Counted from the stretch's first letter, positions 919 to 56,385 are shown. The stretch: 64,000 nt of DNA from Acipenser ruthenus (GCF_902713425.1 NC_081214.1:10944641-11008640); one strand, 5' to 3'. Notes: generated from the letters alone by a model not told the origin. A program made the numbers and translations.

Positions 919-944
919 GCTGAGTGCTGCCATTTGCACTCAGC
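919..944 (+). other. Conserved stem-loop immediately after the polyA signal
   Basis: The stem is gctgagtgc/gcactcagc, 9 bp, with an 8-nt loop. Array LTR copies keep the stem gctgagc/gctcagc but have a different loop (gcgatcacgt). Confidence 0.5.
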
Positions 945-6843: not shown

Positions 6844-6889
6844 GTGGCAATATGCTCCGCCCCTGTGTGCATTCGTGTGTTATGTGTTA
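6844..6889 (+). mobile_element. 46-bp stub of the LTR 5' end (TGTGGCAATATGCTCCGCCCCTGTGTGCATTCGTGTGTTATGTGTTA)
   Basis: It matches the first about 46 bp of the solo LTR. The 300 bp upstream of it is near-identical to positions 20-371. Confidence 0.8.
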
Positions 6890-8262: not shown

Positions 8263-8301
8263 TGTGGCAATGTGCGCCGCCCCTGTGTGCATTTGTGTGT
8301 A
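8263..8301 (+). mobile_element. 39-bp stub of the LTR 5' end (TGTGGCAATGTGCGCCGCCCCTGTGTGCATTTGTGTGT)
   Basis: It matches the LTR start and has the same upstream satellite context as 372 and 6844. Confidence 0.8.
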
Positions 8302-23900: not shown

Positions 23901-26598
23901 AGCGCATGGGCCCCAGCAATCCCACGCGGGGTTCCAGCTGCTTTGCAAATGGTCCCTGGCACCACCCCAGCACGCGCACGGACATTGGCGACCCCACGCG
24001 GGGTCTCAGCGGCTTGCCAAACGGTCCCTGGAACCTCCCAGTAGTGCACCTGGTCTCCAGAATCTTCGCCCGTGGTCCCAGCGGCATGCCAAACGGTCTC
24101 TGGCACCTCCCCAGCACGCACACGGTGCCCAGCGACCCCACGCGGAGTCCCAGCGGCTCGCCAAACTGTCGCTGGCGCCTCCCAAGCATGTACTGGGCCC
24201 AGCGACCACGCGCAGGGTCCTAGCGGCTCGCCAAACTGTGCCTCGCACCTCCCCAGGTCGCGCACGGGCCCCAGCGAACCTGTGCAGGGTCCCAGCGGCT
24301 CGCCAAATGGTCCCTTGCACCTCCCCAGCACGCACACAAGGCCCAGCGAACTCACGCGGGGTCCCAGCATCATGCCAAATGGTCCCTGGCATTTCCCCAA
24401 CATGCGCACAACGCGCGAGGTTCCAGCGGCACTCCAAACGGTGTCTGGCACCTCCCCAGCACGCGCATGGTGCCCAGCGACCCCGCGCGGAGTCCCAGCG
24501 GTGCCAAACTGTCCCTGACACCTCCCCAGAGCACGCACAGACACTAGCGACGCCACACGGGGACACAGCAGATCGCCAAATGGTCCCTGGCACCTCCCCA
24601 GGATGCGTACTGGGCCCAGCGACCCCGCACAGGGTACCAGCTGCTCGCCAAATGGTCCCTCACACCTCCCCAGCATGCGCACGGGCCCCAGCGACCCTGT
24701 GCGGGGTCCCTGCGCGGGGTCCCTGCGGCTCGCCAAATAGTCCCTGGTACCTCCCCAGCGCGCGCACGTGCACCAGCGACCCCACGTGGAGTCCCAATGG
24801 CTCGCCAAACCGTCCCTGGCACCTCCCCAGCGCGCGCACGGGCCCCAGCGACCCCACGCGGGGTCCCAGTGGCACGCCAAACTGTCCCTGACACCTCCTC
24901 AGAGCGCGCACGGACACTAGCGACCCTACGCGGGGACACAGCGGATCGCCAAACCGTCCCTGGTGCCTCCAAAGCACGCAGATGGGCCCCAGCGACCCCG
25001 CACGAGGTCCCACCTACTCGCCACACGGTCCCTGGCACCTCCCAGCAGCTCGCCAAATGGTACATGGCACCTCCCTAGTACGCCCACGGGGCCCAGCGAT
25101 CCGGCGTTGGGACCCAGCAGCTCACCAAACGGTGCCTCGCACCTCCCTAGTACGCGCACGGGCCCCAGCAAATCTGCGCGGGGTCCCAGCGGCTCGCCAA
25201 ATGGTCCCTGGCACCTCCCCAGCACGCACACGGGCCCCAGCCACCCTGTGCGGGGTCCCTGCGGCTCGCCAAATAGTCCCTGGTACCTCCCCAGCACGCA
25301 CACGGGCCCTGTCCACTTCGCGCATACTCCAAGCAGCTCGCCAAACTGTCCCACCTCCCCAGTGCGCAAACGGGGCGCAGCGACCTCGCATTGGGTCCCA
25401 GTCTCGCCAAATGGTCCCTGGCACCTACCCAGCAAGCGCACAGGGCCCAGCACCCACGTGTGGGGTCCCAGCGGCTCGCAAATGGTCCCTGGCACATCCC
25501 CAGCGCGCGCTGGCCCCAGCGGCTTGCCAAACCATCCCTGGCGCCTCCCCAGCACACACACGGGCACAAGAGACCCCGTGCGGGGTCCCAGCGGCTCACC
25601 AAATGGTCTCTGGCACCTAACCAGCGCAAGGACAGCGCCCAGCAACCCCCCGCATGGTCCAAGCGGCTCAGGAAATGGTCCCTGGCACCTCCCCAGAGCG
25701 AGCACAGACACTAACAACCCCACGCGGGGAAACAGCAGCTCGCCAAACCGTCCCTGGTGCCTCCAAAGCACGCGGATGGGCCCCAGCGACCCCGCACGAG
25801 GTCCCACCTACTCGCCACACGGTCCCTGGCACCTCCCAGCAGCTCGCCAAATGGTACATGGCACCTCTCCATCACGCCCACGGGGCCCAGCGATCCGGCG
25901 TTGGGTCCCAGCAGCTCACCAAACGGTGCCTCGCACCTCCCTAGTACGCGCACGGGCCCCCGCGAATCTGCGCGGGGTCCCAGCGGCTCGCCAAATGGTC
26001 CCTGGCACCTCCCCAGCACGCACACGGGCCCTATCTACTTCGCGCATACTCCAAGCAGCTCGCCAAACTGTCCCTGGCACCTCCCCAGTGCACGCACGGG
26101 GCGCAGCGACCTCGCATAGGGTCCCAGAGGCTCGTCAAATGGTCCCTGGCACCTACCCAGCGAGCGCACTGGGCCCAGCGAACCTGCACAGGGTACCAGC
26201 GGCTCACCAAACGGTCCCTCGCATCTCCCCAGCACGCACACGGGCCCCAGCCACCCTGTGCGGGGTCCCTGCGGCTCGCCAAACTGTCCCTGGCACCTCC
26301 CCAGTGCGCAAACGGGGCGCAAACGGGGCGCAGCAACCTCGCATTGGGTCCCAGTCTCGCCAAATGGTCCCTGGCACCTACCCAGCGCGCGCTGGCCCCA
26401 GCGACTCGCCAAATGGTCCCTGGCACCTCCCCATCGCGCTCATTGGCACCAGCGACCCCACGCGGGGTCCCAGCAGCTTGCCAAACCATCCCTGGCGCCT
26501 CCCCAGTACACACACGGGCACAAGAGACCCCGTGCGGGGTCCCAGCGGCTCGCCAAATGGTCTCTGGCACCTAACCAGCGCAAGGACAGCGCCCAGGA
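11978..26598. repeat. About 72-bp GC- and CpG-rich tandem satellite (about 200 copies) with higher-order repeats
   Basis: The monomer is approximately CGCCAAATGGTCCCTGGCACCTCCCCAGCACGCGCACGGGCCCCAGCGACCCCGCGCGGGGTCCCAGCGGCT. Identical ORF-track translations recur at +1006 (12614 and 13620), +2423 (13097 and 15520) and +2499 (19104 and 21603). Both junctions are abrupt: into the 25-bp satellite at about 11977 and into the 3-kb array at about 26598. Confidence 0.9.
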
Positions 26599-27001
26599 AG
26601 CCCTCGCATTCACCCTCTGCTGGTGGACATGGCGGAGGCAGAGGCAGCTCCTGCTGCTCTGCTCCTGCCGGTGGAGGTGGCAGAGGCAGAGGCAGCTCCT
26701 GCTGCTCTGCTCTTGCCGGTGGAGGTGGCGGAGGCAGAGTCAGCTCCTGCTGCTCTGCTCCTGCCGGTGGAGGAGGCAGAGGCAGCTCCTGCTGCTCTGC
26801 TCCTGCCGGTGAAGGTGGCGGAAGCAGAGGCAGCTCCTGCTCCTCTGCTCCTGGCAGTGGTGGAGGCAGAGGCAGCTCCTGCTGCTCTGCTCCTAGTGGA
26901 GGAAGCGGTGGAGGTGGGAGCAGCGTGTAGTCTCCTGGCGATGGAGGTGGGAACAGCGTGTAGTCTCCTGACGATGGAGGTGGGAGCAGCGTGTAGTCTC
27001 C

Positions 27002-27544
27002 CTACGTTGCAGGGGTCTGGTGTGGCTCTGCCTCTGTTGCAGGGGACTGGTGCGGCTCTGCCTCTCTTGCAGGGACTGCTGTGGACCGACTCCTCCCTTT
27101 TGGGCTGTGGACGCACTGACTCCTCCCTTTTGGGCTGTGGACGCACCGACTCCCCCCTCTTGGGCTTAGGACGTTCGGGCTCCCCCCACTCAGACGTAGG
27201 ACGTTCGGGCTCCTCCCAGTCAGGCATAGGACGTTCGGGCTCCACCCTCTCAGGCGTAGGACGTTCGGGCTCCTCCCACTCAGGCGTAGGACGTTCGGGC
27301 TCCTCCCGCTTGGGCTGTGGACGCTCAGGCTCCTCCCGCTTGGGCTGTGGATGCTCAGTCTCCTCTTGGGCTGTGGATGCTCAGGTTCCTCCTCATAACT
27401 GCGGAAGGGACAGTTGGCGAACAGATGATCCTGATCGCAGAGGAGGCACCCCGGTGTTGGCTTGTTAAATCGCCGAGGATGTCTGGCCGTTAGGCGGCAC
27501 TCCTCCTCCCTGTCCTTCACCTCTTTATCCTCCTTCCATCCCAT
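27002..27544 (-). CDS. Gag-like N-terminal ORF with a zinc-knuckle-like CX2CX3HX4C motif (MGWKEDKEVKDREEECRL..RFNKPTPGCLLCDQDHLFANCPF...)
   Basis: The ATG lies about 110 nt downstream of the LTR 3' end in a Kozak-like context (aaaATGGg). The sequence CLLCDQDHLFANC follows. This start is conserved in every unit. Confidence 0.4.
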   Translation of the reverse strand: MGWKEDKEVKDREEECRLTARHPRRFNKPTPGCLLCDQDHLFANCPFRSYEEEPEHPQPKRRLSIHSPSGRSLSVHSPSGRSPNVLRLSGRSPNVLRLRGWSPNVLCLTGRSPNVLRLSGGSPNVLSPRGGSRCVHSPKGRSQCVHSPKGRSRSTAVPAREAEPHQSPATEAEPHQTPAT

Positions 27545-27635
27545 TTTATTTATTTATATATATATTTTTTTGTAATCAATTTTTTTTTCCCCAAAAAAAT
27601 GCGGTTCCTGCTCTGGCCTGAGTCCAGGAGGAGCT

Positions 27636-27656
27636 GTCGTCCCGATTCTAACACCA
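27636..27656 (-). promoter_or_regulatory. Putative primer-binding site (TGGTGTTAGAATCGGGACGAC) adjacent to the LTR 3' end, unit 1 only
   Basis: It starts with TGG immediately after ...GTGACACA. The same position in units 2-5 reads TAGTGTCAGAACCGGGACGAC, with TGG changed to TAG. I could not assign a tRNA from memory. Confidence 0.35.
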
Positions 27657-28220
27657 TGTGTCACAAAGACGGCCGGAGTGGGTGGCGTCAGACCAGATCC
27701 AGGAAATAAACAACAGAGACTTGGAGTTTTGGTGAAGCTGAGCACGTGATCGCGCTCAGCATTTAATAATTAACAGACCAGAAAATAAAAAGGGTTGAAC
27801 ACAAAACAGGACACGCCAAAATAAAGAGACAAACAAAGCAGACTACACAGACAAACACGGTGAGCTTCTATTCTTCACAATTACCTCCGTCTCCAATCCC
27901 GATCTCCACTCACCGAACACACAACCCCGAGTGAATGAAAATGTGTCTATATATACTGTTGTGCTGGGATTCAATTACCAATTAATTATTCACTTGAATC
28001 CCAGCACGTGAATTCATTACATGCAAAACCGTGCTCACATATTACACTTAACCAGCACGTGAAGTGATTTGTGCCCTCCTCATGCCTAAATACAAATCTA
28101 CATTTTTAAATACACGTGAAACACAGACCCGTTTATATCCCGTGTACCAATCTCTATACACCAACATTAACACACGCAACATACAACACTTAACACACAG
28201 GGGCGGGGCGCATTGCCACA
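27657..28220 (-). mobile_element. LTR copy 1 of array
   Basis: Reverse complement of the solo-LTR family, TGTGGCAATGCGCC...CTTTGTGACACA. A poly-G tract (PPT) sits directly on its 5' side and a TGG-initiated PBS-like sequence on its 3' side. Confidence 0.8.
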
Positions 28221-28350
28221 TATACCCCCCCCCCTTGTGCGCAGCACACATGGCCTCAACGGCCACCTCCCCCCTTAAAAACCCAGCAGTCCAGGACAAA
28301 GTCTCGGGCTGGGAAGGGAGGCTTCAGTGGGCCCATGGCTGGCAATGCTG

Positions 28351-29880
28351 TCAGCATCCCTGCCGGTAGTGACACGGCTGACAGCATGCTGGTCCACTCC
28401 TGCAGTGAAATTGCTGCGGGGGATGCTGGTCTCCTGACCTTTTCTTCGTAGCCGATAGCTCCCCTTTGTGGGGCTCCGACCACAGTACTTCCGGCAGCGA
28501 AGAAGCTGCAGTGGGAGCAGGTCTCCAGACCTCCCCCACGATCTCCGGCAGCGAAACTACTGCAGTGGGAGCAGGTCTCCTGACCTCCCCCACCTTCTTC
28601 GTGGCCGGCAGCTCCCCTTGGTGGGGTTCCGGCCACAGTACTTCCTGCTGCGATGCGGAGCAACTGGCAGCCGCAGGCGATGGGGAGCGTCTGGCAACCC
28701 CAGGCGATGCGGAGCGGCTGGCAGCCCCAGGCGATGCGGAGCGACAGGCAGCCCCAGGCGATGTCAGACAGGCATCCTTGGGCGAAGCGTGGCAGGCATC
28801 CTTGGGCGAAGCGTGGCAGGCATCCTTGTGCGAAGCGAGGCAGGCATCCTTGGGCGAAGCAAGGCAGGGAGTCAGGACAAGCTGGGGTGCGGGTGTTGGC
28901 CCTATTCTCGACCTCTGCGGCCGGGCGGTTCTTCCCCGTGCTTCCCTCAGCAGCCTATGCAAGGGCCGCTGAGGACCGCCAGCATCTAGGCCTGGGCCGT
29001 CTGGTGAAGGGAGAGGCAGCTCCTGCTCCTCTCCCCCTGATGGTGATGGAGGCAGAGGCAGCTCCCGCTCCTCTCCTCGTGATGATGGGGAAAGTGAAAC
29101 CAGCAGGCATTCATCCTCTGCTGGTGGGGGAAGTGATACCAGCAGGTATTCAGCCTCTGCTGGTGGGGGAAGTGATACCAGCAGGTATTCATCCTGTGCT
29201 GGTGGACAGGGACCCAGCAGGCATTTACCCTCTGCTGGTGGACAGGGACCCAGCAGGCATTCACCCTCTGCTGGTGGACAGGGACCCAGCAGGCATTCAC
29301 CCTCTGCTGGTGGACAGGGACCCAGCAGGCATTCACCCTCTGCTGGTGGACAGGGACCCAGCAGGCATTCACCCTCTGCTGGTGGACATGGCGGAGGCAG
29401 AGGCAGCTCCTGCTGCTCTGCTCCTGCCGGTGGAGGTGGTGGAGGCAGAGGCAGCTCCTGCTGCTCTGCTCCTGTCGGTGGAGGTGGCGGAGGTAGAGGC
29501 AGCTCCTGCTGCTCTGCTCCTGCCGGTGAAGGTGGTGGAAGCAGAGGCAGCTCCTGCTCCTCTGCTCCTGGCGGTGGTGGAGGCAGAGGCAGCTCCTGCT
29601 GCTCTGCTCCTAGTGGAGGAAGCGGTGGAGGTGGCGGAGGCAGAGGCAGCTCCTGCTGCTCTGCTCCTAGTGGCGGAAGCGGTGGAGGTGGGAGCAGCGT
29701 GTACTCCTGACGATGGAGGTGGGAGCAGCGTGTAGTCTCCCGACGTTGCAGGGGACTGGTTTGGCTGTCTCTCTTGCAGGGGACTGGTGCGGCTCTGCCT
29801 CTTGCAGGGACTGGTGCTGCTCTGCCTCTCTTGCAGGGGACTGTAGTGGAGGCAGTGGCGATGGGGCGGATGCTGGCCAC
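28351..29880 (-). CDS. Proline/glutamate-rich repetitive ORF (509 aa in unit 1), continuing the gag-like ORF after a frameshift
   Basis: It is built from in-frame minisatellites whose periods are all multiples of 3. The opposite strand is also open, so coding status is uncertain. Confidence 0.25.
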   Translation of the reverse strand: MASIRPIATASTTVPCKRGRAAPVPARGRAAPVPCKRDSQTSPLQRRETTRCSHLHRQEYTLLPPPPLPPLGAEQQELPLPPPPPPLPPLGAEQQELPLPPPPPGAEEQELPLLPPPSPAGAEQQELPLPPPPPPTGAEQQELPLPPPPPPAGAEQQELPLPPPCPPAEGECLLGPCPPAEGECLLGPCPPAEGECLLGPCPPAEGECLLGPCPPAEGKCLLGPCPPAQDEYLLVSLPPPAEAEYLLVSLPPPAEDECLLVSLSPSSRGEERELPLPPSPSGGEEQELPLPSPDGPGLDAGGPQRPLHRLLREARGRTARPQRSRIGPTPAPQLVLTPCLASPKDACLASHKDACHASPKDACHASPKDACLTSPGAACRSASPGAASRSASPGVARRSPSPAAASCSASQQEVLWPEPHQGELPATKKVGEVRRPAPTAVVSLPEIVGEVWRPAPTAASSLPEVLWSEPHKGELSATKKRSGDQHPPQQFHCRSGPACCQPCHYRQGC

Positions 29881-30220
29881 TCAGAGGGAGGCTGTGGCGG
29901 TGCTGGCTCCCTCTGCTGTGGCGGCTGGGCTGGTGTGTGCCTTGCTCCCTTCAGCAGCATAAATAGAGGCTGCTGGGGGACACCAGCATCCTGCCCTTCT
30001 CCCCCCCAGAAAAATTCAGGGGGTTGAGCCTGTAACTCCTCCCCTTCTGGCTCTTGGGACGGCAGCAGCAGGTGAACCAACAGGCATGCTTCCTCTGCTG
30101 GTGGACACTGGGACAGCAGGCCTTGTTCCTCTGCTGGTGTAGATGGGGACAGCAGGCATTGTTCTTCTGCTGGTGGAGGTGGAACCAGCAGGCATTCTCC
30201 CTCTGCTGGCAGCTTGGCTC

Positions 30221-30697
30221 CTAGGGCTGTGGAAGCCCCGACTTCCCTCTCTTCGGGCTGCGGACGCACCGACTCCTCCCTTTTGGGCTGTGGACGCACC
30301 GACTCCTCCCTTTTGGGATGTGGACGCACCGACTCCCCCCTCTTGGGCTTAGGACTTTCGGGCTCCCCCCACTCAGACGTAGGACGTTCGGGCTCCTCCC
30401 AGTCAGGCGTAGGACGTTCGGGCTCCCACTCAGGCGTAGGACGTTCGGGCTCCTCCCACTCAGGCTAGGACGTTCGGGCTCCTCCCGCTTGGGCTGTGGA
30501 TGCTCAGTTTCCTCCCACTTAGGTTGTGAACGCTCAGGCTCCTCCTCATAACTGCGGAAGGGACAGTTGGCGAACAGATGATCCTGGTCGCAGAGGAGGC
30601 ACCCCGGCGTTGGCTTGTTAAATCGCCGAGGATGTCTGGCCCTTAGGCGGCACTCCTCCTCCCTGTCCTTCACCTCTTTATCCTCCTTCCATCCCAT
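30221..30697 (-). CDS. Gag-like N-terminal ORF, unit 2
   Basis: Same start sequence as 27002-27544. Confidence 0.4.
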   Translation of the reverse strand: MGWKEDKEVKDREEECRLRARHPRRFNKPTPGCLLCDQDHLFANCPFRSYEEEPERSQPKWEETEHPQPKREEPERPSLSGRSPNVLRLSGSPNVLRLTGRSPNVLRLSGGSPKVLSPRGGSRCVHIPKGRSRCVHSPKGRSRCVRSPKRGKSGLPQP

Positions 30698-30810
30698 TTT
30701 ATTTATTTATATATAGATTTTTTTTGTAATCAATTTTTTTTTCCCCAAAAAAATGCGGTTCCTGCTCTGGCCTGAGTCCTGGAGGCGCTGTCGTCCCGGT
30801 TCTGACACTA

Positions 30811-31384
30811 TGTGTCACAAAGACGGCCGGAGTGGGTGGCGTCAGACCAGATCCAGGATATAAACAACAGAGACTTGGAGTTTTGGTGAAGCTGAGCACG
30901 TGATCGCGCTCAGCATTTAATAATTAACAGACCAGAAAATAAAAAGGGTTGAACACAAAACAGGACACCGCACTTCACGCCAAAATAAAGAGACAAACAA
31001 AGCAGACTACACAGAAAAACACGGTGAGCTTCTATTCTTCACAATTACCTCCGTCTCCAATCCCGATCTCCACTCACCGAACACACAACCCCGATTGAAT
31101 GAAAATGTGTCTATATATACTGTTGTGCTGGCATTCAATTACCAATTAATTATTCACTTGAATCCCAGCACGTGAATTCATTACATGCAACCCCGTGCTA
31201 ACATATTACACTTAACCAGCACGTGAAGTGATTTGTGCCCTCCTCATGCCTAAATACAAATCTACATTTTTAAATACACGTGAAACACAGACCCGTTTAT
31301 ATCCCGTGGACCAATCTCTATACACCAACATTAACACACGCAACATACAACACTTAACACACAGGGGCGGGGCGCATTGCCACA
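30811..31384 (-). mobile_element. LTR copy 2 of array
   Basis: Same boundaries: plus-strand tgtgtcaca...attgccaca. Confidence 0.8.
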
Positions 31385-33250
31385 TATACCCCCCCCCTTG
31401 TGCGCAGCACACATGGCCTCAACGGCCACCTCCCCCCTTAAATACCCAGCAGTCCAGGACAAAGTCTCGGGCTGGGAAGGGAGGCTTCAGTGGGCCCATG
31501 GCTGGCAATGCTGTCAGCACCCCTGCCGGTAGTGGCACGGCTGACAGCATGCTGGTCCACTCCTGCAGTGAAATTGCTGCGGGGGATGCTGGTCTCCTGA
31601 CCTTTTCTTCGTAGCCGATAGCTCCCCTTTCTGGGGCTCTGACCACAGTACTTCCGGCAGCGAAGAAGCTTGCAGTGGGAGCAGGTCGCCAGACCTCCCC
31701 ACGATCTCCGGCAGCGAAACTACTGCAGTGGGAGCAGGTCTACTGACCTCCCCGACCTTCTTCATGGCCGGCAGCTCCCCTTGGTGGGGTTCCGGCCACA
31801 GTACTTCCTGCTGCGATGCGGAGCAACTGGCAGCCGCAGGCGATGCGGAGTGGCTGGCAACCCCAGGCGATGCGGAGCGGCTGGCAGCCCCAGGCGATGC
31901 GGAGCGACAGGCAGCCCCAGGTGATGCGGAGCGACAGGCAGCCCCAGGGGATGCCAGACAGGCATCCTTGGGCGAAGCGTGGCAGGCATCCTTGGGCGAA
32001 GTGTGGCAAGCATCCTTGTGCGAAGCGAGGCAGGCATCCTTGGGCGAAGCGAGGCAGGGAGTCAGGACAAGCTGGGGTGCGGGTGTTGGCCCTCTTCTCG
32101 ACCTCTGCGGCCGGGCGGTTCTTCCCCATGCTTCCCTCAGCAGCCTATGCAAGGGCCGCTGAGGACCGCCAGCATCTAGGCCTGGGCCGTCTGGTGAAGG
32201 GAGAGGCAGCTCCTGCTCCTCTCCCCCTGATGGTGATGGAGGCAGAGGCAGCTCCCGCTCCTCTCCTCGTGATGGTGGGGGAAGTGATACCAGCAGGTAT
32301 TCATCCTCTGCTGGTGGACAGGGACCCAGCAGGCATTTACCCTCTGCTGGTGGACAGGGACCCAGCAGGCATTCACCCTCTGCTGGTGGACAGGGACCCA
32401 GCAGGCATTCACCCTCTGCTGGTGGACAGGGACCCAGCAGGCATTCACCCTCTGCTGGTGGACATGGCGGAGGCAGAGGCAGCTCCTGCTGCTCTGCTCC
32501 TGCCGGTGGAGGTGGCGGAGGCAGAGGCAGCTCCTGCTGCTCTGCTCCTGCCGGTAAAGGTGGTGGAAGCAGAGGCAGCTCCTGCTCCTCTGCTCCTGGC
32601 GGTGGTGGAGGCAGAGGCAGCTCCTGCTGCTCTGCTCCTAGTGGAGGAAGCGGTGGAGGTGGCGGAGGCAGAGGCAGCTCCTGCTGCTCTGCTCCTAGTG
32701 GCGGAAGCGGTGGAGGTGGGAGCAGCGTGTACTCCTGACGATGGAGGTGGGAGCAGCGTGTAGTCTCCCGACGTTGCAAGGGACTGGTTTGGCTCTGCCT
32801 CTCTTGCAGGGGACTGGTGCGGCTCTGCCTCTTGCAGGGACTGGTGCAGCTCTGCCTCTCTTGCAGGGGACTGTAGTGGAGGCAGTGGCGACGGGGCGGA
32901 TGCTGGCCACTCAGAGGGAGGCTGTGGCGGTGCTGGCACCCTCTGCTGTGGCGGCTGGGCTGGTGTGTGCCGTGCTCCCTTCAGCAGCATAAATAGAGGC
33001 TGCTGGGGGACACCAGCATCCTTTCCTTCTCCCCCCCAGAAAAATTCAGGGGGTTGAGCCTGTAACTCCTCCCCTTCTGGCTCTTGGGACGGCAGCAGCA
33101 GGTGAACCAACAGGCATGCTTCCTCTGCTGGTGGACACTGGGACAGCAGGCCTTGTTCCTCTGCTAGTGTAGATGGGGACAGCAGGCACTGTTCTTCTTC
33201 TGGTGGAGGTGGAACCAGCAGGCATTCTCCCTCTGCTGGCAGCTTGGGTC

Positions 33251-33757
33251 CTAGGGCTGTGGAAGCCCCGACTTCCCTCTCTTCGGGCTGTGGACGCACC
33301 GACTCCTCCCTTTTGGGCTGTGGACGCACCGACTCCTCCCTTTTGGGCTGTGGACGCACCGACTCCTCCCTTTTGGGCTGTGGACGCACCGACTCCCCCC
33401 TCTTGGGCTTAGGACTTTCGGGCTCCCCCCACTCAGACGTAGGACGTTCGGGCTCCTCCCAGTCAGGCGTAGGACGTTCGGGCTCCCACTCAGGCGTAGG
33501 ACGTTCGGGCTCCTCCCACTCAGGCTAGGACGTTCGGGCTCCTCCCGCTTGGGCTGTGGATGCTCAGTTTCCTCCCACTTAGGTTGTGAACGCTCAGGCT
33601 CCTCCTCATAACTGCGGAAGGGACAGTTGGCGAACAGATGATCCTGGTCGCAGAGGAGGCACCCCGGCGTTGGCTTGTTAAATCGCCGAGGATGTCTGGC
33701 CCTTAGGCGGCACTCCTCCTCCCTGTCCTTCACCTCTTTATCCTCCTTCCATCCCAT
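33251..33757 (-). CDS. Gag-like N-terminal ORF, unit 3
   Basis: Identical to the unit 4 copy (36315-36821). The downstream repetitive ORFs 32445-33389 and 31514-32779 overlap it in other frames. Confidence 0.4.
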   Translation of the reverse strand: MGWKEDKEVKDREEECRLRARHPRRFNKPTPGCLLCDQDHLFANCPFRSYEEEPERSQPKWEETEHPQPKREEPERPSLSGRSPNVLRLSGSPNVLRLTGRSPNVLRLSGGSPKVLSPRGGSRCVHSPKGRSRCVHSPKGRSRCVHSPKGRSRCVHSPKRGKSGLPQP

Positions 33758-33870
33758 TTTATTTATTTATATATAGATTTTTTTTGTAATCAATTTTTTT
33801 TTCCCCCAAAAAATGCAGTTCCTGCTCTGGCCTGAGTCCTGGAGGCGCTGTCGTCCCGGTTCTGACACTA

Positions 33871-34444
33871 TGTGTCACAAAGACGGCCGGAGTGGGTGGC
33901 GTCAGACCAGATCCAGGATATAAACAACAGAGACTTGGAGTTTTGGTGAAGCTGAGCACGTGATCGCGCTCAGCATTTAATAATTAACAGACCAGAAAAT
34001 AAAAAGGGTTGAACACAAAAAAGGACACGGCACTTCACGCCAAAATAAAGAGACAAACAAAGCAGACTACACAGAAAAACACGGTGAGCTTCTATTCTTC
34101 ACAATTACCTCCGTCTCCAATCCCGATCTCCACTCACCGAACACACAACCCCGATTGAATGAAAATGTGTCTATATATACTGTTGTGCTGGCATTCAATT
34201 ACCAATTAATTATTCACTTGAATCCCAGCACGTGAATTCATTACATGCAACCCCGTGCTAACATATTACACTTAACCAGCACGTGAAGTGATTTGTGCCC
34301 TCCTCATGCCTAAATACAAATCTACATTTTTAAATACACGTGAAACACAGACCCGTTTATATCCCGTGGACCAATCTCTATACACCAACATTAACACACG
34401 CAACATACAACACTTAACACACAGGGGCGGGGCGCATTGCCACA
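33871..34444 (-). mobile_element. LTR copy 3 of array
   Basis: Same boundaries; near-identical to copies 2 and 4. Confidence 0.8.
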
Positions 34445-34460
34445 TATACCCCCCCCCCCC
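34445..34460 (-). promoter_or_regulatory. Polypurine tract (AAGGGGGGGGGGGGG) immediately 5' of the LTR
   Basis: Seen as a poly-C run on the plus strand. G-run length varies between units: 10, 9, 13, 8 and 13. Confidence 0.5.
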
Positions 34461-36314
34461 CTTGTGCGCAGCACACATGGCCTCAACGGCCACCTCCCCC
34501 CTTAAATACCCAGCAGTCCAGGACAAAGTCTCGGGCTGGGAAGGGAGGCTTCAGTGGGCCCATGGCTGGCAATGCTGTCAGCACCCCTGCCGGTAGTGGC
34601 ACGGCTGACAGCATGCTGGTCCACTCCTGCAGTGAAATTGCTGCGGGGGATGCTGGTCTCCTGACCTTTTCTTCGTAGCCGATAGCTCCCCTTTCTGGGG
34701 CTCTGACCACAGTACTTCCGGCAGCGAAGAAGCTTGCAGTGGGAGCAGGTCGCCAGACCTCCCCACGATCTCCGGCAGCGAAACTACTGCAGTGGGAGCA
34801 GGTCTACTGACCTCCCCGACCTTCTTCATGGCCGGCAGCTCCCCTTGGTGGGGTTCCGGCCACAGTACTTCCTGCTGCGATGCGGAGCAACTGGCAGCCG
34901 CAGGCGATGCGGAGTGGCTGGCAACCCCAGGCGATGCGGAGCGGCTGGCAGCCCCAGGCGATGCGGAGCGACAGGCAGCCCCAGGTGATGCGGAGCGACA
35001 GGCAGCCCCAGGGGATGCCAGACAGGCATCCTTGGGCGAAGCGTGGCAGGCATCCTTGGGCGAAGTGTGGCAAGCATCCTTGTGCGAAGCGAGGCAGGCA
35101 TCCTTGGGCGAAGCGAGGCAGGGAGTCAGGACAAGCTGGGGTGCGGGTGTTGGCCCTCTTCTCGACCTCTGCGGCCGGGCGGTTCTTCCCCATGCTTCCC
35201 TCAGCAGCCTATGCAAGGGCCGCTGAGGACCGCCAGCATCTAGGCCTGGGCCGTCTGGTGAAGGGAGAGGCAGCTCCTGCTCCTCTCCCCCTGATGGTGA
35301 TGGAGGCAGAGGCAGCTCCCGCTCCTCTCCTCGTGATGGTGGGGGAAGTGATACCAGCAGGTATTCATCCTCTGCTGGTGGACAGGGACCCAGCAGGCAT
35401 TTACCCTCTGCTGGTGGACAGGGACCCAGCAGGCATTCACCCTCTGCTGGTGGACAGGGACCCAGCAGGCATTCACCCTCTGCTGGTGGACAGGGACCCA
35501 GCAGGCATTCACCCTCTGCTGGTGGACATGGCGGAGGCAGAGGCAGCTCCTGCTGCTCTGCTCCTGCCGGTGGAGGTGGCGGAGGCAGAGGCAGCTCCTG
35601 CTGCTCTGCTCCTGCCGGTAAAGGTGGTGGAAGCAGAGGCAGCTCCTGCTCCTCTGCTCCTGGCGGTGGTGGAGGCAGAGGCAGCTCCTGCTGCTCTGCT
35701 CCTAGTGGAGGAAGCGGTGGAGGTGGCGGAGGCAGAGGCAGCTCCTGCTGCTCTGCTCCTAGTGGCGGAAGCGGTGGAGGTGGGAGCAGCGTGTACTCCT
35801 GACGATGGAGGTGGGAGCAGCGTGTAGTCTCCCGACGTTGCAAGGGACTGGTTTGGCTCTGCCTCTCTTGCAGGGGACTGGTGCGGCTCTGCCTCTTGCA
35901 GGGACTGGTGCGGCTCTGCCTCTCTTGCAGGGGACTGTAGTGGAGGCAGTGGCGACGGGGCGGATGCTGGCCACTCAGAGGGAGGCTGTGGCGGTGCTGG
36001 CACCCTCTGCTGTGGCGGCTGGGCTGGTGTGTGCCGTGCTCCCTTCAGCAGCATAAATAGAGGCTGCTGGGGGACACCAGCATCCTTTCCTTCTCCCCCC
36101 CAGAAAAATTCAGGGGGTTGAGCCTGTAACTCCTCCCCTTCTGGCTCTTGGGACGGCAGCAGCAGGTGAACCAACAGGCATGCTTCCTCTGCTGGTGGAC
36201 ACTGGGACAGCAGGCCTTGTTCCTCTGCTAGTGTAGATGGGGACAGCAGGCATTGTTCTTCTTCTGGTGGAGGTGGAACCAGCAGGCATTCTCCCTCTGC
36301 TGGCAGCTTGGGTC

Positions 36315-36821
36315 CTAGGGCTGTGGAAGCCCCGACTTCCCTCTCTTCGGGCTGTGGACGCACCGACTCCTCCCTTTTGGGCTGTGGACGCACCGACTCC
36401 TCCCTTTTGGGCTGTGGACGCACCGACTCCTCCCTTTTGGGCTGTGGACGCACCGACTCCCCCCTCTTGGGCTTAGGACTTTCGGGCTCCCCCCACTCAG
36501 ACGTAGGACGTTCGGGCTCCTCCCAGTCAGGCGTAGGACGTTCGGGCTCCCACTCAGGCGTAGGACGTTCGGGCTCCTCCCACTCAGGCTAGGACGTTCG
36601 GGCTCCTCCCGCTTGGGCTGTGGATGCTCAGTTTCCTCCCACTTAGGTTGTGAACGCTCAGGCTCCTCCTCATAACTGCGGAAGGGACAGTTGGCGAACA
36701 GATGATCCTGGTCGCAGAGGAGGCACCCCGGCGTTGGCTTGTTAAATCGCCGAGGATGTCTGGCCCTTAGGCGGCACTCCTCCTCCCTGTCCTTCACCTC
36801 TTTATCCTCCTTCCATCCCAT
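36315..36821 (-). CDS. Gag-like N-terminal ORF, unit 4
   Basis: Identical to the unit 3 copy. Confidence 0.4.
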   Translation of the reverse strand: MGWKEDKEVKDREEECRLRARHPRRFNKPTPGCLLCDQDHLFANCPFRSYEEEPERSQPKWEETEHPQPKREEPERPSLSGRSPNVLRLSGSPNVLRLTGRSPNVLRLSGGSPKVLSPRGGSRCVHSPKGRSRCVHSPKGRSRCVHSPKGRSRCVHSPKRGKSGLPQP

Positions 36822-36933
36822 TTTATTTATTTATATATAGATTTTTTTTGTAATCAATTTTTTTTCCCCAAAAAAATGCGGTTCCTGCTCTGGCCTGAGT
36901 CCTGGAGGCGCTGTCGTCCCGGTTCTGACACTA

Positions 36934-37507
36934 TGTGTCACAAAGACGGCCGGAGTGGGTGGCGTCAGACCAGATCCAGGATATAAACAACAGAGACTTG
37001 GAGTTTTGGTGAAGCTGAGCACGTGATCGCGCTCAGCATTTAATAATTAACAGACCAGAAAATAAAAAGGGTTGAACACAAAACAGGACACGGCACTTCA
37101 CGCCAAAATAAAGAGACAAACAAAGCAGACTACACAGAAAAACACGGTGAGCTTCTATTCTTCACAATTACCTCCGTCTCCAATCCCGATCTCCACTCAC
37201 CGAACACACAACCCCGATTGAATGAAAATGTGTCTATATATACTGTTGTGCTGGCATTCAATTACCAATTAATTATTCACTTGAATCCCAGCACGTGAAT
37301 TCATTACATGCAACCCCGTGCTAACATATTACACTTAACCAGCACGTGAAGTGATTTGTGCCCTCCTCATGCCTAAATACAAATCTACATTTTTAAATAC
37401 ACGTGAAACACAGACCCGTTTATATCCCGTGGACCAATCTCTATACACCAACATTAACACACGCAACATACAACACTTAACACACAGGGGCGGGGCGCAT
37501 TGCCACA
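36934..37507 (-). mobile_element. LTR copy 4 of array
   Basis: Same boundaries. Confidence 0.8.
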
Positions 37508-39372
37508 TATACCCCCCCCTTGTGCGCAGCACACATGGCCTCAACGGCCACCTCCCCCCTTAAATACCCAGCAGTCCAGGACAAAGTCTCGGGCTGGGAA
37601 GGGAGGCTTCAGTGGGCCCATGGCTGGCAATGCTGTCAGCACCCCTGCCGGTAGTGGCACGGCTGACAGCATGCTGGTCCACTCCTGCAGTGAAATTGCT
37701 GCGGGGGATGCTGGTCTCCTGACCTTTTCTTCGTAGCCGATAGCTCCCCTTTCTGGGGCTCTGACCACAGTACTTCCGGCAGCGAAGAAGCTTGCAGTGG
37801 GAGCAGGTCGCCAGACCTCCCCACGATCTCCGGCAGCGAAACTACTGCAGTGGGAGCAGGTCTACTGACCTCCCCGACCTTCTTCATGGCCGGCAGCTCC
37901 CCTTGGTGGGGTTCCGGCCACAGTACTTCCTGCTGCGATGCGGAGCAACTGGCAGCTGCAGGCGATGCGGAGTGGCTGGCAACCCCAGGCGATGCGGAGC
38001 GGCTGGCAGCCCCAGGCGATGCGGAGCGACAGGCAGCCCCAGGTGATGCGGAGCGACAGGCAGCCCCAGGGGATGCCAGACAGGCATCCTTGGGCGAAGC
38101 GTGGCAGGCATCCTTGGGCGAAGTGTGGCAAGCATCCTTGTGCGAAGCGAGGCAGGCATCCTTGGGCGAAGCGAGGCAGGGAGTCAGGACAAGCTGGGGT
38201 GCGGGTGTTGGCCCTCTTCTCGACCTCTGCGGCCGGGCGGTTCTTCCCCATGCTTCCCTCAGCAGCCTATGCAAGGGCCGCTGAGGACCGCCAGCATCTA
38301 GGCCTGGGCCGTCTGGTGAAGGGAGAGGCAGCTCCTGCTCCTCTCCCCCTGATGGTGATGGAGGCAGAGGCAGCTCCCGCTCCTCTCCTCGTGATGGTGG
38401 GGGAAGTGATACCAGCAGGTATTCATCCTCTGCTGGTGGACAGGGACCCAGCAGGCATTTACCCTCTGCTGGTGGACAGGGACCCAGCAGGCATTCACCC
38501 TCTGCTGGTGGACAGGGACCCAGCAGGCATTCACCCTCTGCTGGTGGACAGGGACCCAGCAGGCATTCACCCTCTGCTGGTGGACATGGCGGAGGCAGAG
38601 GCAGCTCCTGCTGCTCTGCTCCTGCCGGTGGAGGTGGCGGAGGCAGAGGCAGCTCCTGCTGCTCTGCTCCTGCCGGTAAAGGTGGTGGAAGCAGAAGCAG
38701 CTCCTGCTCCTCTGCTCCTGGCGGTGGTGGAGGCAGAGGCAGCTCCTGCTGCTCTGCTCCTAGTGGAGGAAGCGGTGGAGGTGGCGGAGGCAGAGGCAGC
38801 TCCTGCTGCTCTGCTCCTAGTGGCGGAAGCGGTGGAGGTGGGAGCAGCGTGTACTCCTGACGATGGAGGTGGGAGCAGCGTGTAGTCTCCCGACGTTGCA
38901 AGGGACTGGTTTGGCTCTGCCTCTCTTGCAGGGGACTGGTGCGGCTCTGCCTCTTGCAGGGACTGGTGCGGCTCTGCCTCTCTTGCAGGGGACTGTAGTG
39001 GAGGCAGTGGCGACGGGGCGGATGCTGGCCACTCAGAGGGAGGCTGTGGCGGTGCTGGCACCCTCTGCTGTGGCGGCTGGGCTGGTGTGTGCCGTGCTCC
39101 CTTCAGCAGCATAAATAGAGGCTGCTGGGGGACACCAGCATCCTTTCCTTCTCCCCCCCAGAAAAATTCAGGGGGTTGAGCCTGTAACTCCTCCCCTTCT
39201 GGCTCTTGGGACGGCAGCAGCAGGTGAACCAACAGGCATGCTTCCTCTGCTGGTGGACACTGGGACAGCAGGCCTTGTTCCTCTGCTAGTGTAGATGGGG
39301 ACAGCAGGCATTGTTCTTCTTCTGGTGGAGGTGGAACCAGCAGGCATTCTCCCTCTGCTGGCAGCTTGGGTC

Positions 39373-39879
39373 CTAGGGCTGTGGAAGCCCCGACTTCCCT
39401 CTCTTCGGGCTGTGGACGCACCGACTCCTCCCTTTTGGGCTGTGGACGCACCGACTCCTCCCTTTTGGGCTGTGGACGCACCGACTCCTCCCTTTTGGGC
39501 TGTGGACGCACCGACTCCCCCCTCTTGGGCTTAGGACTTTCGGGCTCCCCCCACTCAGACGTAGGACGTTCGGGCTCCTCCCAGTCAGGCGTAGGACGTT
39601 CGGGCTCCCACTCAGGCGTAGGACGTTCGGGCTCCTCCCACTCAGGCTAGGACGTTCGGGCTCCTCCCGCTTGGGCTGTGGATGCTCAGTTTCCTCCCAC
39701 TTAGGTTGTGAACGCTCAGGCTCCTCCTCATAACTGCGGAAGGGACAGTTGGCGAACAGATGATCCTGGTCGCAGAGGATGCACCCCGGCGTTGGCTTGT
39801 TAAATCGCCGAGGATGTCTGGCCCTTAGGCGGCACTCCTCCTCCCTGTCCTTCACCTCTTTATCCTCCTTCCATCCCAT
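39373..39879 (-). CDS. Gag-like N-terminal ORF, unit 5
   Basis: Same as units 3 and 4 except one substitution (CILCDQ). Confidence 0.4.
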   Translation of the reverse strand: MGWKEDKEVKDREEECRLRARHPRRFNKPTPGCILCDQDHLFANCPFRSYEEEPERSQPKWEETEHPQPKREEPERPSLSGRSPNVLRLSGSPNVLRLTGRSPNVLRLSGGSPKVLSPRGGSRCVHSPKGRSRCVHSPKGRSRCVHSPKGRSRCVHSPKRGKSGLPQP

Positions 39880-39991
39880 TTTATTTATTTATATATAGAT
39901 TTTTTTTGTAATCAATTTTTTTTTCCCCAAAAAAATGCGGTTCCTGCTCTGGCCTGAGTCCTGGAGGCGCTGTCGTCCCGGTTCTGACACT

Positions 39992-40566
39992 ATGTGTCAC
40001 AAAGACGGCCGGAGTGGGTGGCGTCAGACCAGATCCAGGATATAAACAACAGAGACTTGGAGTTTTGGTGAAGCTGAGCACGTGATCGCGCTCAGCATTT
40101 AATAATTAACAGACCAGAAAATAAAAAGGGTTGAACACAAAACAGGACACGGCACTTCACGCCAAAATAAAGAGACAAACAAAGCAGACTACACAGAAAA
40201 ACACGATGAGCTTCTATTCTTCACAATTACCTCCGTCTCCAATCCCGATCTCCACTCACCGAACACACAACCCCGATTGAATGAAAATGTGTCTATATAT
40301 ACTGTTGTGCTGGCATTCAATTACCAATTAATTATTCACTTGAATCCCAGCACGTGAATTCATTACATGCAACCCCGTGCTAACATATTACACTTAACCA
40401 GCACGTGAAGTGATTTGTGCCCTCCTCATGCCTAAATACAAATCTACATTTTTAAATACACGTGAAACACAGACCCGTTTATATCCCGTGGACCAATCTC
40501 TATACACCAACATTAACACACGCAACATACAACACTTAACACACAGGGGCGGGGCGCATTGCCACA
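39992..40566 (-). mobile_element. LTR copy 5 of array
   Basis: Same boundaries. The internal region on its 5' side (40567-42694) has no further LTR. Confidence 0.8.
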
Positions 40567-42694
40567 TATACCCCCCCCCCCCCTTGTGCGCAGCACACAT
40601 GGCCTCAACGGCCACCTCCCCCCTTAAATACCCAGCAGTCCAGGACAAAGTCTCGGGCTGGGAAGGGAGGCTTCAGTGGGCCCATGGCTGGCAATGCTGT
40701 CAGCACCCCTGCCGGTAGTGGCACGGCTGACAGCATGCTGGTCCACTCCTGCAGTGAAATTGCTGCGGGGGATGCTGGTCTCCTGACCTTTTCTTCGTAG
40801 CCGATAGCTCCCCTTTCTGGGGCTCTGACCACAGTACTTCCGGCAGCGAAGAAGCTTGCAGTGGGAGCAGGTCGCCAGACCTCCCCACGATCTCCGGCAG
40901 CGAAACTACTGCAGTGGGAGCAGGTCTACTGACCTCCCCCACCTTCTTCATGGCCGGCAGCTCCCCTTGGTGGGGTTCCGGCCACAGTACTTCCTGCTGC
41001 GATGCGGAGCAACTGGCAGCCGCAGGCGATGCGGAGCGGCTGGCAACCCCAGGCGATGCGGAGCGGCTGGCAGCCCCAGGCGATGCAGAGCGACAGGCAG
41101 CCCCAGGTGATGCGGAGCGACAGGCAGCCCCAGGGGATGCCAGACAGGCATCCTTGGGCGAAGCGTGGCAGGCATCCTTGGGCGAAGTGTAGCAAGCATC
41201 CTTGTGCGAAGCGAGGCAGGCATCCTTGGGCGAAGCGAGGCAGGGAGTCAGGACAAGCTGGGGTGCGGGTGTTGGCCCTCTTCTCGACCTCTGCGGCCGG
41301 GCGGTTCTTCCCCATGCTTCCCTCAGCAGCCTATGCAAGGGCCGCTGAGGACCGCCAGCATCTAGGCCTGGGCCGTCTGGTGAAGGGAGAGGCAGCTCCT
41401 GCTCCTCTCCCCCTGATGGTGATGGAGGCAGAGGCAGCTCCCGCTCCTCTCCTCGTGATGGTGGGGGAAGTGATACCAGCAGGTATTCATCCTCTGCTGG
41501 TGGACAGGGACCCAGCAGGCATTTACCCTCTGCTGGTGGACAGGGACCCAGCAGGCATTCACCCTCTGCTGGTGGACAGGGACCCAGCAGGCATTCACCC
41601 TCTGCTGGTGGACAGGGACCCAGCAGGCATTCACCCTCTGCTGGTGGACAGGGTCCCAGCAGGCATTCACCCTCTGCTGGTGGACATGGCGGAGGCAGAG
41701 GCAGCTCCTGCTGCTCTGCTCCTGTCGGTGGAGGTGGCGGAAGCAGAGGCAGCTCCTGCTGCTCTGCTCCTGTCGGTGGAGGTGGCGGAGGCAGAGGCAG
41801 CTCCTGCTGCTCTGCTCCTGCCGGTGAAGGTGGTGGAAGCAGAGGCAGCTCCTGCTCCTGGCGGTGGTGGAGGCAGAGGCAGCTCCTGCTGCTCTGCTCC
41901 TAGTGGAGGAAGCGGTGGAGGTGGCGGAGGCAGAGGCAGCTCCTGCTGCCCTGCTCCTAGTGGTGGAAGCGGTGGAGGTGGGAGCAGCGTGTAGTCTCCT
42001 GACAATGGAGGTGGGAGCAGCGTGTAGTCTCCCGACGTTGCAGGGGACTGGTGTGGCTCTGCCTCTCTTGCAGGGGACTGGTGTGGCTCTGCCTCTCTTG
42101 CAGGGGACTGTGGTGGAGGCAGTGGCGATGGGGCGGATGCTGGCCACTCAGAGGGAGGCTGTGGCGGTGCTGGCTCCCTCTGCTGTGGCGGCTGGGCTGG
42201 TGTGTGCCGTGCTCCCTTCAGCAGCACAAATAGAGGCTGCTGGGGGACACCAGCATCCTTTCCTTCTCCCCCCCAGAAAAATTCAGGGGGTTGAGCCTGT
42301 AACTCCTCCCCTTCTGGCTCTTGGGACGGCAGCAGCAGGTGAACCAACAGGCATGCTTCCTCTGCTGGTGGACACTGGGACAGCAGGCCTTGTTCCTCTG
42401 CTAGTGTAGATGGGGACAGCAGGCACTGTTCTTCTTCTGGTGGAGGTGGAACCAGCAGGCATTCTCCCTCTGCTGGCAGCTTGGGTCCTAGGGCTGTGGA
42501 AGCCCCGACTTCCCTCTCTTCGGGCTGTGGACGCACCGACTCCTCCCTTTTGGGCTGTGGACGCACCGACTCCTCCCTTTTGGGCTGTGGACGCACCGAC
42601 TCCTCCCTTTTGGGCTGTGGACGCACAGGCTCCTCCTCATAACTGCGGAAGGGACAGTTGGCGAACAGATGATCCTGGTTGCAGAGGAGGCACC

Positions 42695-54600: not shown

Positions 54601-56385
54601 AGCCACGATTGAGCAACATGACCATAGCCTCGATTCAGTAATATGACCATAGCCACGATTAAGTAACATGACCATAGCCATGGTTGAGCAACATGACCAT
54701 AGCCACAAATGAGTAAAATGGCCATAGCCACGACTGAGCAACATGACCATAGCCACGATGGAGTAACATGACCATAGCCACAATTGAGTAACGACCATAG
54801 CAACGATTGAGCAACATGACCATAGCCAGGGTTGAGCAACATGACCATAGCCACAAATGAGTAAAATGGCCATAGCCACAACTGAGCAACATGACCATAG
54901 CCACGGTTGAGCAACATGACCATAGCCACGATGGAGTAACATGACCATAGCCACGATTGAACAACATGACCATATCCACGATTCTGTAACATGACCATGG
55001 CCACGACTCAGCGACATGACCTTAGGCACGATTCAATAACTTGACCATAGCCACGGTTGAGCAAAATGACCATAGCCACGATTCACTGACATGACCATAG
55101 CCACGGTTGAGTACCATGACCATAGCCATGATTAAATAACATGAATAATCACGATTCAGTAACATGACCATAGCCAAGATTCAGTAACATGACCATAGCC
55201 TCAATTCAGCGACATGGCCATAGCAACGATTCACCGACATGACCATAGCTCAATTCAGCGAGATGGCCACAGCAACAATTCAGTAACATGACCATAGCCA
55301 CGACTGAGTAACATGACCGTAGCCACTTTTGACTAGCATGACCATAGCTACGATTGAGCAATATGACCATAGCCACGACTCAATAACATGACCATAGCCA
55401 CGATTCAGTAACATGACCATAGCCACGATTCACTGATATGACCATAGCCACGATTGAGTAAAATGAAAATAGCCACGATTGAGCAACATGACCATAGCCA
55501 CAATTGAGCAACATGACCATAGGAATGATTCAGTAACGTGACCATAGCCACGATTCAGTAACATGAACTTAGCCACGGTTGAGTAACATGACCATAGCCA
55601 GGTTTCAGTAAAATGACCATAGCCACGATTCAGTAACATGAAAATAGCCACGATTGAGCAACATGACCATAGCCACAATTCAATGACATGACCATAGCCG
55701 TGATTCAGTAACATGATCATAGCCGCGATTCAGTAACATGACCGTAGCCATGAATGAGTAACATGACCATAGCCACGGTTTAGAAACATGACTATAGCCA
55801 CGATGGAGCAACATGACCATAGCCTCGATTCAGTAACATGACCATAGCCACGATTAAGTAACATGACCATAGCCATGGTTGAGCAACATGACCATAGCCA
55901 CGATTAAGTAACATGACCATAGCCACGATTGAGCAACATGACCATAGCAACGATTGAGCAACATGACCATAGCAAAGATTGAGCAACATGACCATAGCCA
56001 CGGTTGAGCAATATGACCATAGCCACGATTGAGGACCATGACCATAGCTGCGATTGAGTAATATGACCATAGCCACGGTTGAATAACATGACTATAACCA
56101 GGTTTAAGTAACATGACCTTAGAATCGATTCAGTAACATGAACATTGCCACGGTTGAGTAACATGACCATAACCAGGTTTAAGTAACATGACCATAGCTA
56201 CGGTTCAGCAACATGACAATAGCCACGATTGAGCAACATGACCATAGCCACGATTGAGTAACATGACCATAGCCACGATTGAGTAACATGACCATAGCCA
56301 TGATTCAGTAACATGACCATAGTCATGATTGAGGACCATGACCATAGCTGCGATTGAGTAATATGACCATAGCCACAGCTGAATA
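42695..56385. repeat. 25-bp tandem satellite, block C, with variable higher-order repeats of about 1.7-2.1 kb
   Basis: Same monomer and orientation. Identical ORF-track translations recur at +2108 (47263 and 49371; 48350 and 50458), +1733, +1870 and +1696. Confidence 0.95.
44017..44253 (+). mobile_element. tRNA-derived CORE/MIR-like SINE inserted in the satellite
   Basis: The tRNA-like head is gtggactagtggttagggc...gggttcaatcccc (A and B boxes). The central CORE-like segment is cccttgagcaaggtactttacct...ctgtataaatgggtaatt. The LINE-type tail is ttgtaagtcgccctggataagggcgtctgctaa followed by (AAAT)n. It is flanked by an ATAACC target-site duplication at 44011-44016 and 44254-44259. Confidence 0.8.

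Follow-up and report, generated by a model that had tools for sequence, protein, structure and literature searches.

A 64,000-nucleotide (nt) stretch of Acipenser ruthenus DNA (GCF_902713425.1 NC_081214.1:10944641-11008640, hereafter the window) contains a macro-repeat of approximately 3.06 kb, repeated head-to-tail on the minus strand from 26606 to 42701. Each unit combines one long terminal repeat (LTR) with one internal region (INT). The region probably arose by tandem amplification, at the DNA level, of a non-autonomous LTR retrotransposon that was already defective and whose family is dispersed in Acipenser. The repeat was located by Tandem Repeats Finder (TRF), by a repeat search and by blastn of one unit against the window. 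Coordinates are positions in the window except where a locus of Acipenser sinensis is named, and the sense strand of the array is the minus strand.

Architecture of the array

The array consists of five LTRs alternating with six internal regions (about 2.49 kb when complete), of which the two outer ones are truncated, making some 5.5 units (Table 1). The LTRs are spaced start to start by 3059, 3063, 3060 and 3164 bp, and the families returned by the repeat search recur at 3030-3190 bp. With the unit at 33757-36821 as blastn query, full-length matches were obtained to 30697-33757 (99.7% identity), 36821-39879 (99.6%) and 39879-42636 (95%). A further full-length match, to 27544-30697, has 89.8% identity; indels in the minisatellites are the main cause of this lower value. 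The segment 26606-27544 is a partial unit with an internal deletion. Chance is excluded as the origin of the repeat, because the units match over 3 kb at 95-99.9% identity.

Exactly one LTR lies between neighbouring internal regions. It is always in the same orientation and register, is directly preceded by a polypurine tract and is followed by a site resembling a primer-binding site (PBS). Neither flanking DNA nor a target-site duplication is present between units, which is the arrangement that marks a shared-LTR array. Both termini of the array lie inside internal sequence and abut satellite DNA, a 72-bp satellite at ~26605/26606 on the left and a 25-bp satellite at ~42701/42708 on the right. 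Examination of the two ends revealed no outer LTR and no target-site duplication at either.

When the five array segments are aligned with the two other LTR copies of the window, the LTR boundaries fall at TGTGGCAAT...TTGTGACA. The termini, TGTGGC...GTGACA, are of the TG...CA type. Within the LTR a TATA box, TATATATAG, is found at position 266 and an ATTAAA signal at 464, the latter followed by a 24-nt hairpin. The PBS-like 18-mer starts 2 nt past the LTR, and a leader and an ATG follow it (ATG at 39879, 36821, 33757, 30697 and 27544). In INT_c, which served as the reference internal region, the 18-mer reads TAGTGTCAGAACCGGGAC (36933-36916) and is followed by the ATG at 36821. The site begins with TAG in INT_b, INT_c, INT_d and INT_e. 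INT_f is the sole copy in the array to keep a PBS that begins with TGG, TGGTGTTAGAATCGGGAC at 27656-27639. Every array LTR is preceded by a polypurine tract of AA and 8-13 G, then TATA; the tract of INT_c has 13 G and occupies 34463-34449.

An initial annotation of the window had described a 16-kb tandem macro-repeat in minus orientation, an LTR-internal chain with five LTRs, one per unit. TRF, the repeat search, blastn and the LTR coordinates all agree with this description, and the period given there, 3058-3154 bp, is essentially right (measured, 3059-3164 bp). The PBS-like site, leader, ATG and poly-G polypurine tract that it assigned to each unit are seen in the complete internal regions. 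Its observations that the TGG-initiated PBS is confined to unit 1 with TAG elsewhere, that units 2-4 are virtually identical, and that the array ends fuse to satellites without an LTR or a duplication were each reproduced, in INT_f against INT_b to INT_e, in the central internal regions (0.1-0.3% different) and at both junctions, respectively. We would qualify its term "satellite-like". A satellite or macrosatellite is a long, homogeneous head-to-tail array, typically of tens of units or more, kept by concerted evolution. The head-to-tail order and the gradient of homogeneity from centre to edge suit the term, which is generous for an array of ~5.5 units.

Table 1. Positions of the array, its component parts, related LTR copies, flanking satellites and A. 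sinensis loci
Feature	Position	Strand	Remarks
Whole array, INT_a-LTR_A-INT_b-LTR_B-INT_c-LTR_C-INT_d-LTR_D-INT_e-LTR_E-INT_f	26606..42701	-	from blastn, repeat families and LTR coordinates
INT_a	40567..42701	-	5'-truncated; starts in the open reading frame just upstream of the zinc-knuckle-like motif (42692-42654); abuts 25-bp satellite
LTR_A, 572 bp	39995..40566	-	1-2 differences from LTR_B, LTR_C and LTR_D
INT_b, 2487 bp	37508..39994	-	TAG PBS-like site, leader, ATG 39879, frameshifted repeat-rich open reading frame, polypurine tract
LTR_B, 572 bp	36936..37507	-	from LTR alignment
INT_c, 2491 bp	34445..36935	-	reference internal region; from sequence and three-frame translation
LTR_C, 572 bp	33873..34444	-	TGTGGC...GTGACA termini
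INT_d, 2488 bp	31385..33872	-	0.2-0.3% from INT_b and INT_c
LTR_D, 572 bp	30813..31384	-	from LTR alignment
INT_e, 2592 bp	28221..30812	-	minisatellite copy numbers differ from other units
LTR_E, 562 bp	27659..28220	-	10-bp deletion and 8-9 substitutions
INT_f	26606..27658	-	3'-truncated inside minisatellite, internally deleted; TGG-initiated PBS; abuts 72-bp satellite
Solo LTR, 633 bp	380..1012	+	in 25-bp satellite; CATGA duplication at 375-379 and 1013-1017
Third LTR copy, 5' 314 bp visible	63687..64000	+	runs off the window; adjoins an unclassified minus-strand open reading frame
LTR 5'-end fragment, 46 bp	6843..6888	+	shares its preceding 50 nt of satellite with the solo LTR
LTR 5'-end fragment, 38 bp	8263..8300	+	same 50-nt satellite flank
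72-bp satellite, 14.6 kb	11974..26605		68% G+C; 144- and 216-bp higher-order periods; flanks left end of array
25-bp satellite	42708..56376		flanks right end of array; also at 1-379, 1012-11976 and 59295-61294
A. sinensis L001	9258-12789		LTR-INT-LTR; perfect 5-bp duplication AGCAG
A. sinensis L002	9375-11879		LTR-INT-LTR, 3' LTR internally deleted; perfect 5-bp duplication AGGGT
A. sinensis L003	~9310-12406		LTR-INT-LTR; perfect 5-bp duplication GTTAC
A. sinensis L005	LTR(...6930)-INT-LTR(9287-9910)-INT-LTR(11581 to ~12215)		
A. sinensis L007	INT(16406-17162)-LTR(17163-17778)-INT-LTR(19698-20276)		VSKV01005146.1

The element and its family

Three-frame translation of INT_c revealed that a continuous open reading frame (ORF) of ~790 aa requires two frameshifts. 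The same two frameshifts are present in INT_b and INT_d, since these are near-identical to INT_c with almost no indels. The N-terminus of the ORF reads MGWKEDKEV...PGCLLCDQDHLFANCPF and holds a zinc-knuckle-like CX2CX3HX4C motif (36725-36687 in INT_c), with peptide repeats downstream. Relatives in A. sinensis hold one to five CX2CX4HX4C motifs, followed by matching repeats of the EEPERPxPEW type. Pfam detected no domain of any kind in five long ORFs of the array, the zinc-knuckle included; matches of the relatives to zf-CCHC_4 and zf-CCHC_6 are sub-threshold only. Because its ORF has the zinc-knuckle-like motif, the element resembles a gag-remnant type more than a purely non-coding one, and the ORF may derive from gag. 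The internal regions also carry minisatellites with TRF periods of 24, 27, 30, 33, 36, 42, 48, 54, 57 and 90 bp, all multiples of 3; two further calls, of 26 and 28 bp, are indel-rich variants of the 30-bp repeat. Their copy number varies among units, the 36-bp repeat for example having 7.9, 4.9 and 5.9 copies. These minisatellites correspond to the peptide repeats, and we suggest that they expanded in frame during the active period of the family.

The internal ORF was translated with its frames stitched together (339 aa) and used as a protein query with a threshold of E <= 0.01. The search returned 136 matches, comprising 135 A. sinensis proteins named "hypothetical protein FKN15_..." and one of A. 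ruthenus; no homolog outside Acipenser is found among the named matches. Each of the 120 listed matches sits on a single contig, and nearly all are on different contigs. This distribution identifies the internal region as a dispersed repeat. When 1.84 billion representative proteins were searched exhaustively with HMMER, 126 matches were obtained, and no pol-bearing autonomous relative sharing the ORF is among them. Pfam likewise matched no pol domain (protease, reverse transcriptase, RNase H or integrase) in the array ORFs, and no reverse transcriptase or integrase was seen in the homologs. Neither these two domains nor gag domains occur in the ten longest additional matches scanned or in the precomputed Pfam annotations of the first-search matches. 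An Rfam scan, which would include for example 5S sequences of the kind found in Cassandra, matched no family. As far as can be seen from these sequences, the family is non-autonomous.

The LTR-like segment of the array is a genuine LTR, because the window holds a solo LTR bordered by CATGA duplications and A. sinensis holds two-LTR copies with 5-bp duplications. Excising the solo LTR together with one CATGA gives back the consensus of the 25-bp satellite. To judge from its structure, this solo LTR is the signature of integrase-mediated insertion followed by LTR-LTR recombination. For A. sinensis, the LTR and internal region of the window were mapped onto fetched DNA and seven loci were inspected. 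The PBS of L001, L002, L003, L005 and L007 reads TGGTGTC...GGGAT and starts 2 nt after the LTR, as in INT_f. A polypurine tract is likewise present in L001, L002, L005 and L007. The canonical element is ~2.5-3.5 kb long, with LTRs of ~570-640 bp, 5-bp target-site duplications and a single repeat-rich ORF, and is without pol. At L005 and L007, two of the seven loci (a proportion not to be taken as a frequency), an LTR is shared between two internal regions. L005 is a mosaic, in which the last 700 nt of both internal regions are 100% identical and the LTRs are 6% diverged.

We note some further features of these copies. The LTR copies have a well-conserved U3 half and fall into two clearly distinct types in the R-U5 half (LTRa against LTRb and LTRc of L005; array against solo LTR); both R-U5 types are present together in the L005 tandem. 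At 17778-17847 of L007 the last ~50 nt of U5 and the PBS are repeated once, directly past the shared LTR and its PBS. Many A. sinensis gene models (P0125, P0127, P0132, P0139, P0123 and others) consist of the element or are chimeras of it with host genes (ADAM, Ig/SPRY, JIP, Rap1). Such chimeras are the only source of recognisable domains among the ORF matches, and the long matches are annotation chimeras of this kind.

Origin of the array

Divergence is lowest in the centre of the array. LTR_A to LTR_D have one or two differences in 572 positions, and LTR_E stands apart at about 1.5%. At four LTR positions or more, LTR_E has the state of the solo LTR and of the copy at 63687, and LTR_A to LTR_D share a derived base. 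The mutual substitution divergence of INT_b, INT_c and INT_d is 0.1-0.3% (3-7 substitutions), and their G runs measure 8, 13 and 9. INT_a differs from these central units by 1.3-1.5%. INT_e is ~1.5% diverged overall; its first 500 alignment columns have zero substitutions relative to INT_c and the remainder 1-3%. INT_f is the most distant, with ~5% in the unique leader and 9% overall. The 5-9% divergence of INT_f suggests that the array is older than its near-identical centre implies.

During retroviral replication the PBS is recopied from the tRNA primer by plus-strand strong-stop synthesis. The TAG-initiated PBS is identical in four adjacent units, and DNA duplication is therefore its best explanation. 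The shared PBS mutation, frameshifts and LTR substitutions together point to duplication of DNA and not to repeated retrotransposition. Duplication at the DNA level has also occurred in the neighbourhood independently of the array, as copies of a satellite/LTR junction are found at 6843 and 8263. Since the 50-nt flank is common to 380, 6843 and 8263, this junction was re-duplicated inside the 25-bp satellite after insertion of the LTR.

Unequal exchange between LTRs is the textbook route to shared-LTR tandems (PMC5932611; PMC7215508). Applied to this array, one or two copies of the element would have integrated into a satellite-rich domain, and homologous recombination, unequal in register, of a 5' LTR with a 3' LTR would have produced LTR-INT-LTR-INT-LTR with a shared LTR, a solo LTR being the reciprocal product. 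Repeated unequal crossing-over or gene conversion in the 3.06-kb register could then have expanded the array and homogenised its centre, while the edge units escaped homogenisation and diverged. The outer ends may later have been removed by deletion or satellite turnover, which would have brought internal sequence into direct contact with the 72-bp satellite on one side and the 25-bp satellite on the other.

The initial annotation had likewise proposed DNA-level amplification of an already-dead copy, by unequal LTR exchange or tandem amplification and not by independent insertions. The shared TAG PBS, frameshifts and derived LTR substitutions support the former claim, and the lack of a double LTR or a duplication between units supports the latter. 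Independent insertions, adjacent or nested, were rejected, since neighbouring units would then be separated by a pair of LTRs and a target-site duplication. Its view of the unit as non-autonomous, with no reverse transcriptase, RNase H or integrase, is upheld by the Pfam and protein searches and refined by the zinc-knuckle-like motif. It had asked whether the LTR segment is a terminal repeat elsewhere, and both the solo LTR and the LTR-INT-LTR copies of A. sinensis have it as such. Nor does its other caveat, a conventional host gene, hold: the internal ORF has matches in over 130 predicted proteins scattered through A. sinensis.

Several points weigh against the amplification model. Both outer ends are truncated and are thus without the original outer LTRs and target-site duplication from which the founding event might be read. 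INT_f (5-9%) is far more diverged than the adjoining LTR_E (1.5%); the contrast therefore requires either two different founder copies or a conversion boundary near the LTR_E/INT_f junction. The copy number and the near-identity of the centre rest on a single assembly. The A. sinensis assembly is rich in gaps, one of which cuts the 5' LTR of L005, and the loci were chosen partly for multi-member protein clusters, which is why their proportion of tandems is not a frequency. The PBS, TGGTGTCAGAACCGGGAT, may resemble the 3' end of tRNA-Leu(CAA); the window and six A. sinensis loci contain no tRNA genes.

One LTR per unit would equally be expected if a one-LTR circle (LTR plus INT) had been excised, copied by rolling-circle replication into a linear concatemer and end-joined into the satellite. 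This is a recognised route to tandem transposable elements (PMC5932611), and it would account for arbitrary ends in the internal region with neither an outer LTR nor a target-site duplication. A concatemer made in one step, however, starts homogeneous and should diverge evenly, whereas the array has 0.1% at its centre and 1.5% and 5-9% at its edges. Later unequal exchange or conversion would be required anyway, and there is no direct evidence of circles. We therefore regard a rolling-circle origin as unlikely. Reverse transcription offers another source of multimers, in which template switching, or recombination of cDNA or of read-through transcripts, yields a multi-LTR cDNA that integrates as an array. 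Multimeric cDNA has been put forward for Cassandra, BARE and Ty1, and for tandem non-autonomous elements (PMC7215508). Tandem forms do recur in the family (L005, L007), and the U5-PBS repeat of L007 looks like aberrant strand transfer during reverse transcription. Yet the mutated TAG PBS persists in four internal regions, although reverse transcription tends to reset the PBS, and the same frameshifts occur in three. Nor would a single integration be expected to give the divergence gradient or an array without outer LTRs and target-site duplication, and this origin is decidedly improbable.

Near-identical 3-kb units within satellite DNA assemble poorly, and minisatellite periods in multiples of 3 together with long ORFs could suggest a tandemly duplicated host gene instead of a mobile element. 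That the array is an artefact of assembly or such a gene nevertheless seems highly improbable. Units b, c and d are distinct, by 3-7 substitutions and by the length of the G run (8, 13 and 9 G). An LTR bordered by target-site duplications and a family of dispersed copies mark it as a transposable element; moreover the ORF is frameshifted, its Pfam result is blank and its named matches are confined to Acipenser. DNA-level amplification of a defective element remains the reading we prefer. A bolder proposal, that this pol-less sturgeon family is intrinsically prone to form shared-LTR multimers and may actively give rise to new 3-kb macrosatellites in satellite-rich heterochromatin, was considered because the two A. 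sinensis tandems also share an LTR and one has the U5-PBS duplication; we hold it to be doubtful.

Satellite context and known shared-LTR arrays

The 72-bp satellite to the left of the array is fused straight to the 25-bp satellite at 11974-11976. The idea that the flanking satellites derive from the minisatellites of the element was rejected, as the 72-bp and 25-bp consensus sequences, compared with the unit by Smith-Waterman on both strands, scored no higher than dinucleotide-shuffled sequences. The 25-bp satellite also borders two minus-strand copies of a CR1-like non-LTR retrotransposon, at 56468-59188 and 61414-62868. The former copy encodes an apurinic-type endonuclease and RVT_1 (E = 2.9e-39); RVT_1 is also present in the latter (E = 1.3e-28), which shares the C-terminal tail of the former. 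A minus-strand ORF at 63208-63633 reads ...RITRWYLALQPFMYHMVHRAGKDHLNADYFSR..., and the plus-strand LTR at 63687 is inserted ~50 bp beyond it. Pfam gave no match for this ORF, which may resemble the C-terminal end of the RNase H region of an LTR-retrotransposon pol.

The array is a clean vertebrate intermediate between a dispersed retrotransposon and a satellite, in which the parent family is identifiable, the unit is dead and the gradient of homogenisation is visible. It adds a data point from an early-branching lineage of ray-finned fish and reveals no new mechanism. The family itself is an uncharacterised sturgeon non-autonomous LTR family that contaminates the A. sinensis annotation, being contained in over 130 "hypothetical proteins" there and in several chimeric models of host genes. 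Among the papers retrieved in a literature search on sturgeon satellites and retrotransposons, none has a title or abstract that describes this family or its array.

LARD, TRIM and TR-GAG elements have LTRs, a PBS and a polypurine tract and are without pol; TR-GAG keeps only a gag-like ORF. These are named classes of non-autonomous LTR elements in plants (PMC7215508, PMC13570524). The sturgeon element may be akin to TR-GAG, as its only ORF has a zinc-knuckle-like motif, although zf-CCHC matches are sub-threshold and confined to the relatives. Neither TRIM nor LARD accommodates its size and the length of its LTRs, and its host is an animal.

Tandem arrays with shared LTRs have been reported before, in yeast, Drosophila and plants and for human HERV-K. 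Their formation by ectopic LTR recombination, with expansion by unequal exchange, has been described in Drosophila and in earlier systems (PMC5932611). The sturgeon array has the same (LTR-internal)n layout, with one LTR between neighbours and no duplication between units, and for those tandems, as here, expansion by unequal exchange has been suggested as a way for a transposable element to become a satellite. Unlike the known shared-LTR dimers, it is a vertebrate array of a non-autonomous element with shared disabling mutations and ~5.5 units, and it lies between two unrelated satellites with both outer ends truncated.

The plant TRIM element Cassandra forms long arrays of a non-autonomous LTR element with incomplete terminal units, for which the same two candidate mechanisms have been discussed (Kalendar et al. 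2020, PMC7215508). Both systems are non-autonomous and show an alternation of nearly identical LTRs and internal domains, which in Cassandra extends to as many as 12 units. Cassandra, however, is very small, its internal domain is non-coding and its LTRs contain 5S RNA sequences, whereas the sturgeon unit measures 3.06 kb and its 2.5-kb internal region bears an ORF. Were the sturgeon family intrinsically prone to multimers, it would be a vertebrate counterpart of the Cassandra-type arrays. In human, HERV-K(HML-2) at 7p22.1 (K108L/K108R) is a tandem provirus with a shared central LTR (PMC12057132). It too is a vertebrate case of two tandem LTR elements sharing the middle LTR, but it is a dimer, its element is an endogenous retrovirus of autonomous type and its outer LTRs are intact, in contrast to the multi-unit, pol-less array embedded in satellite DNA described here.

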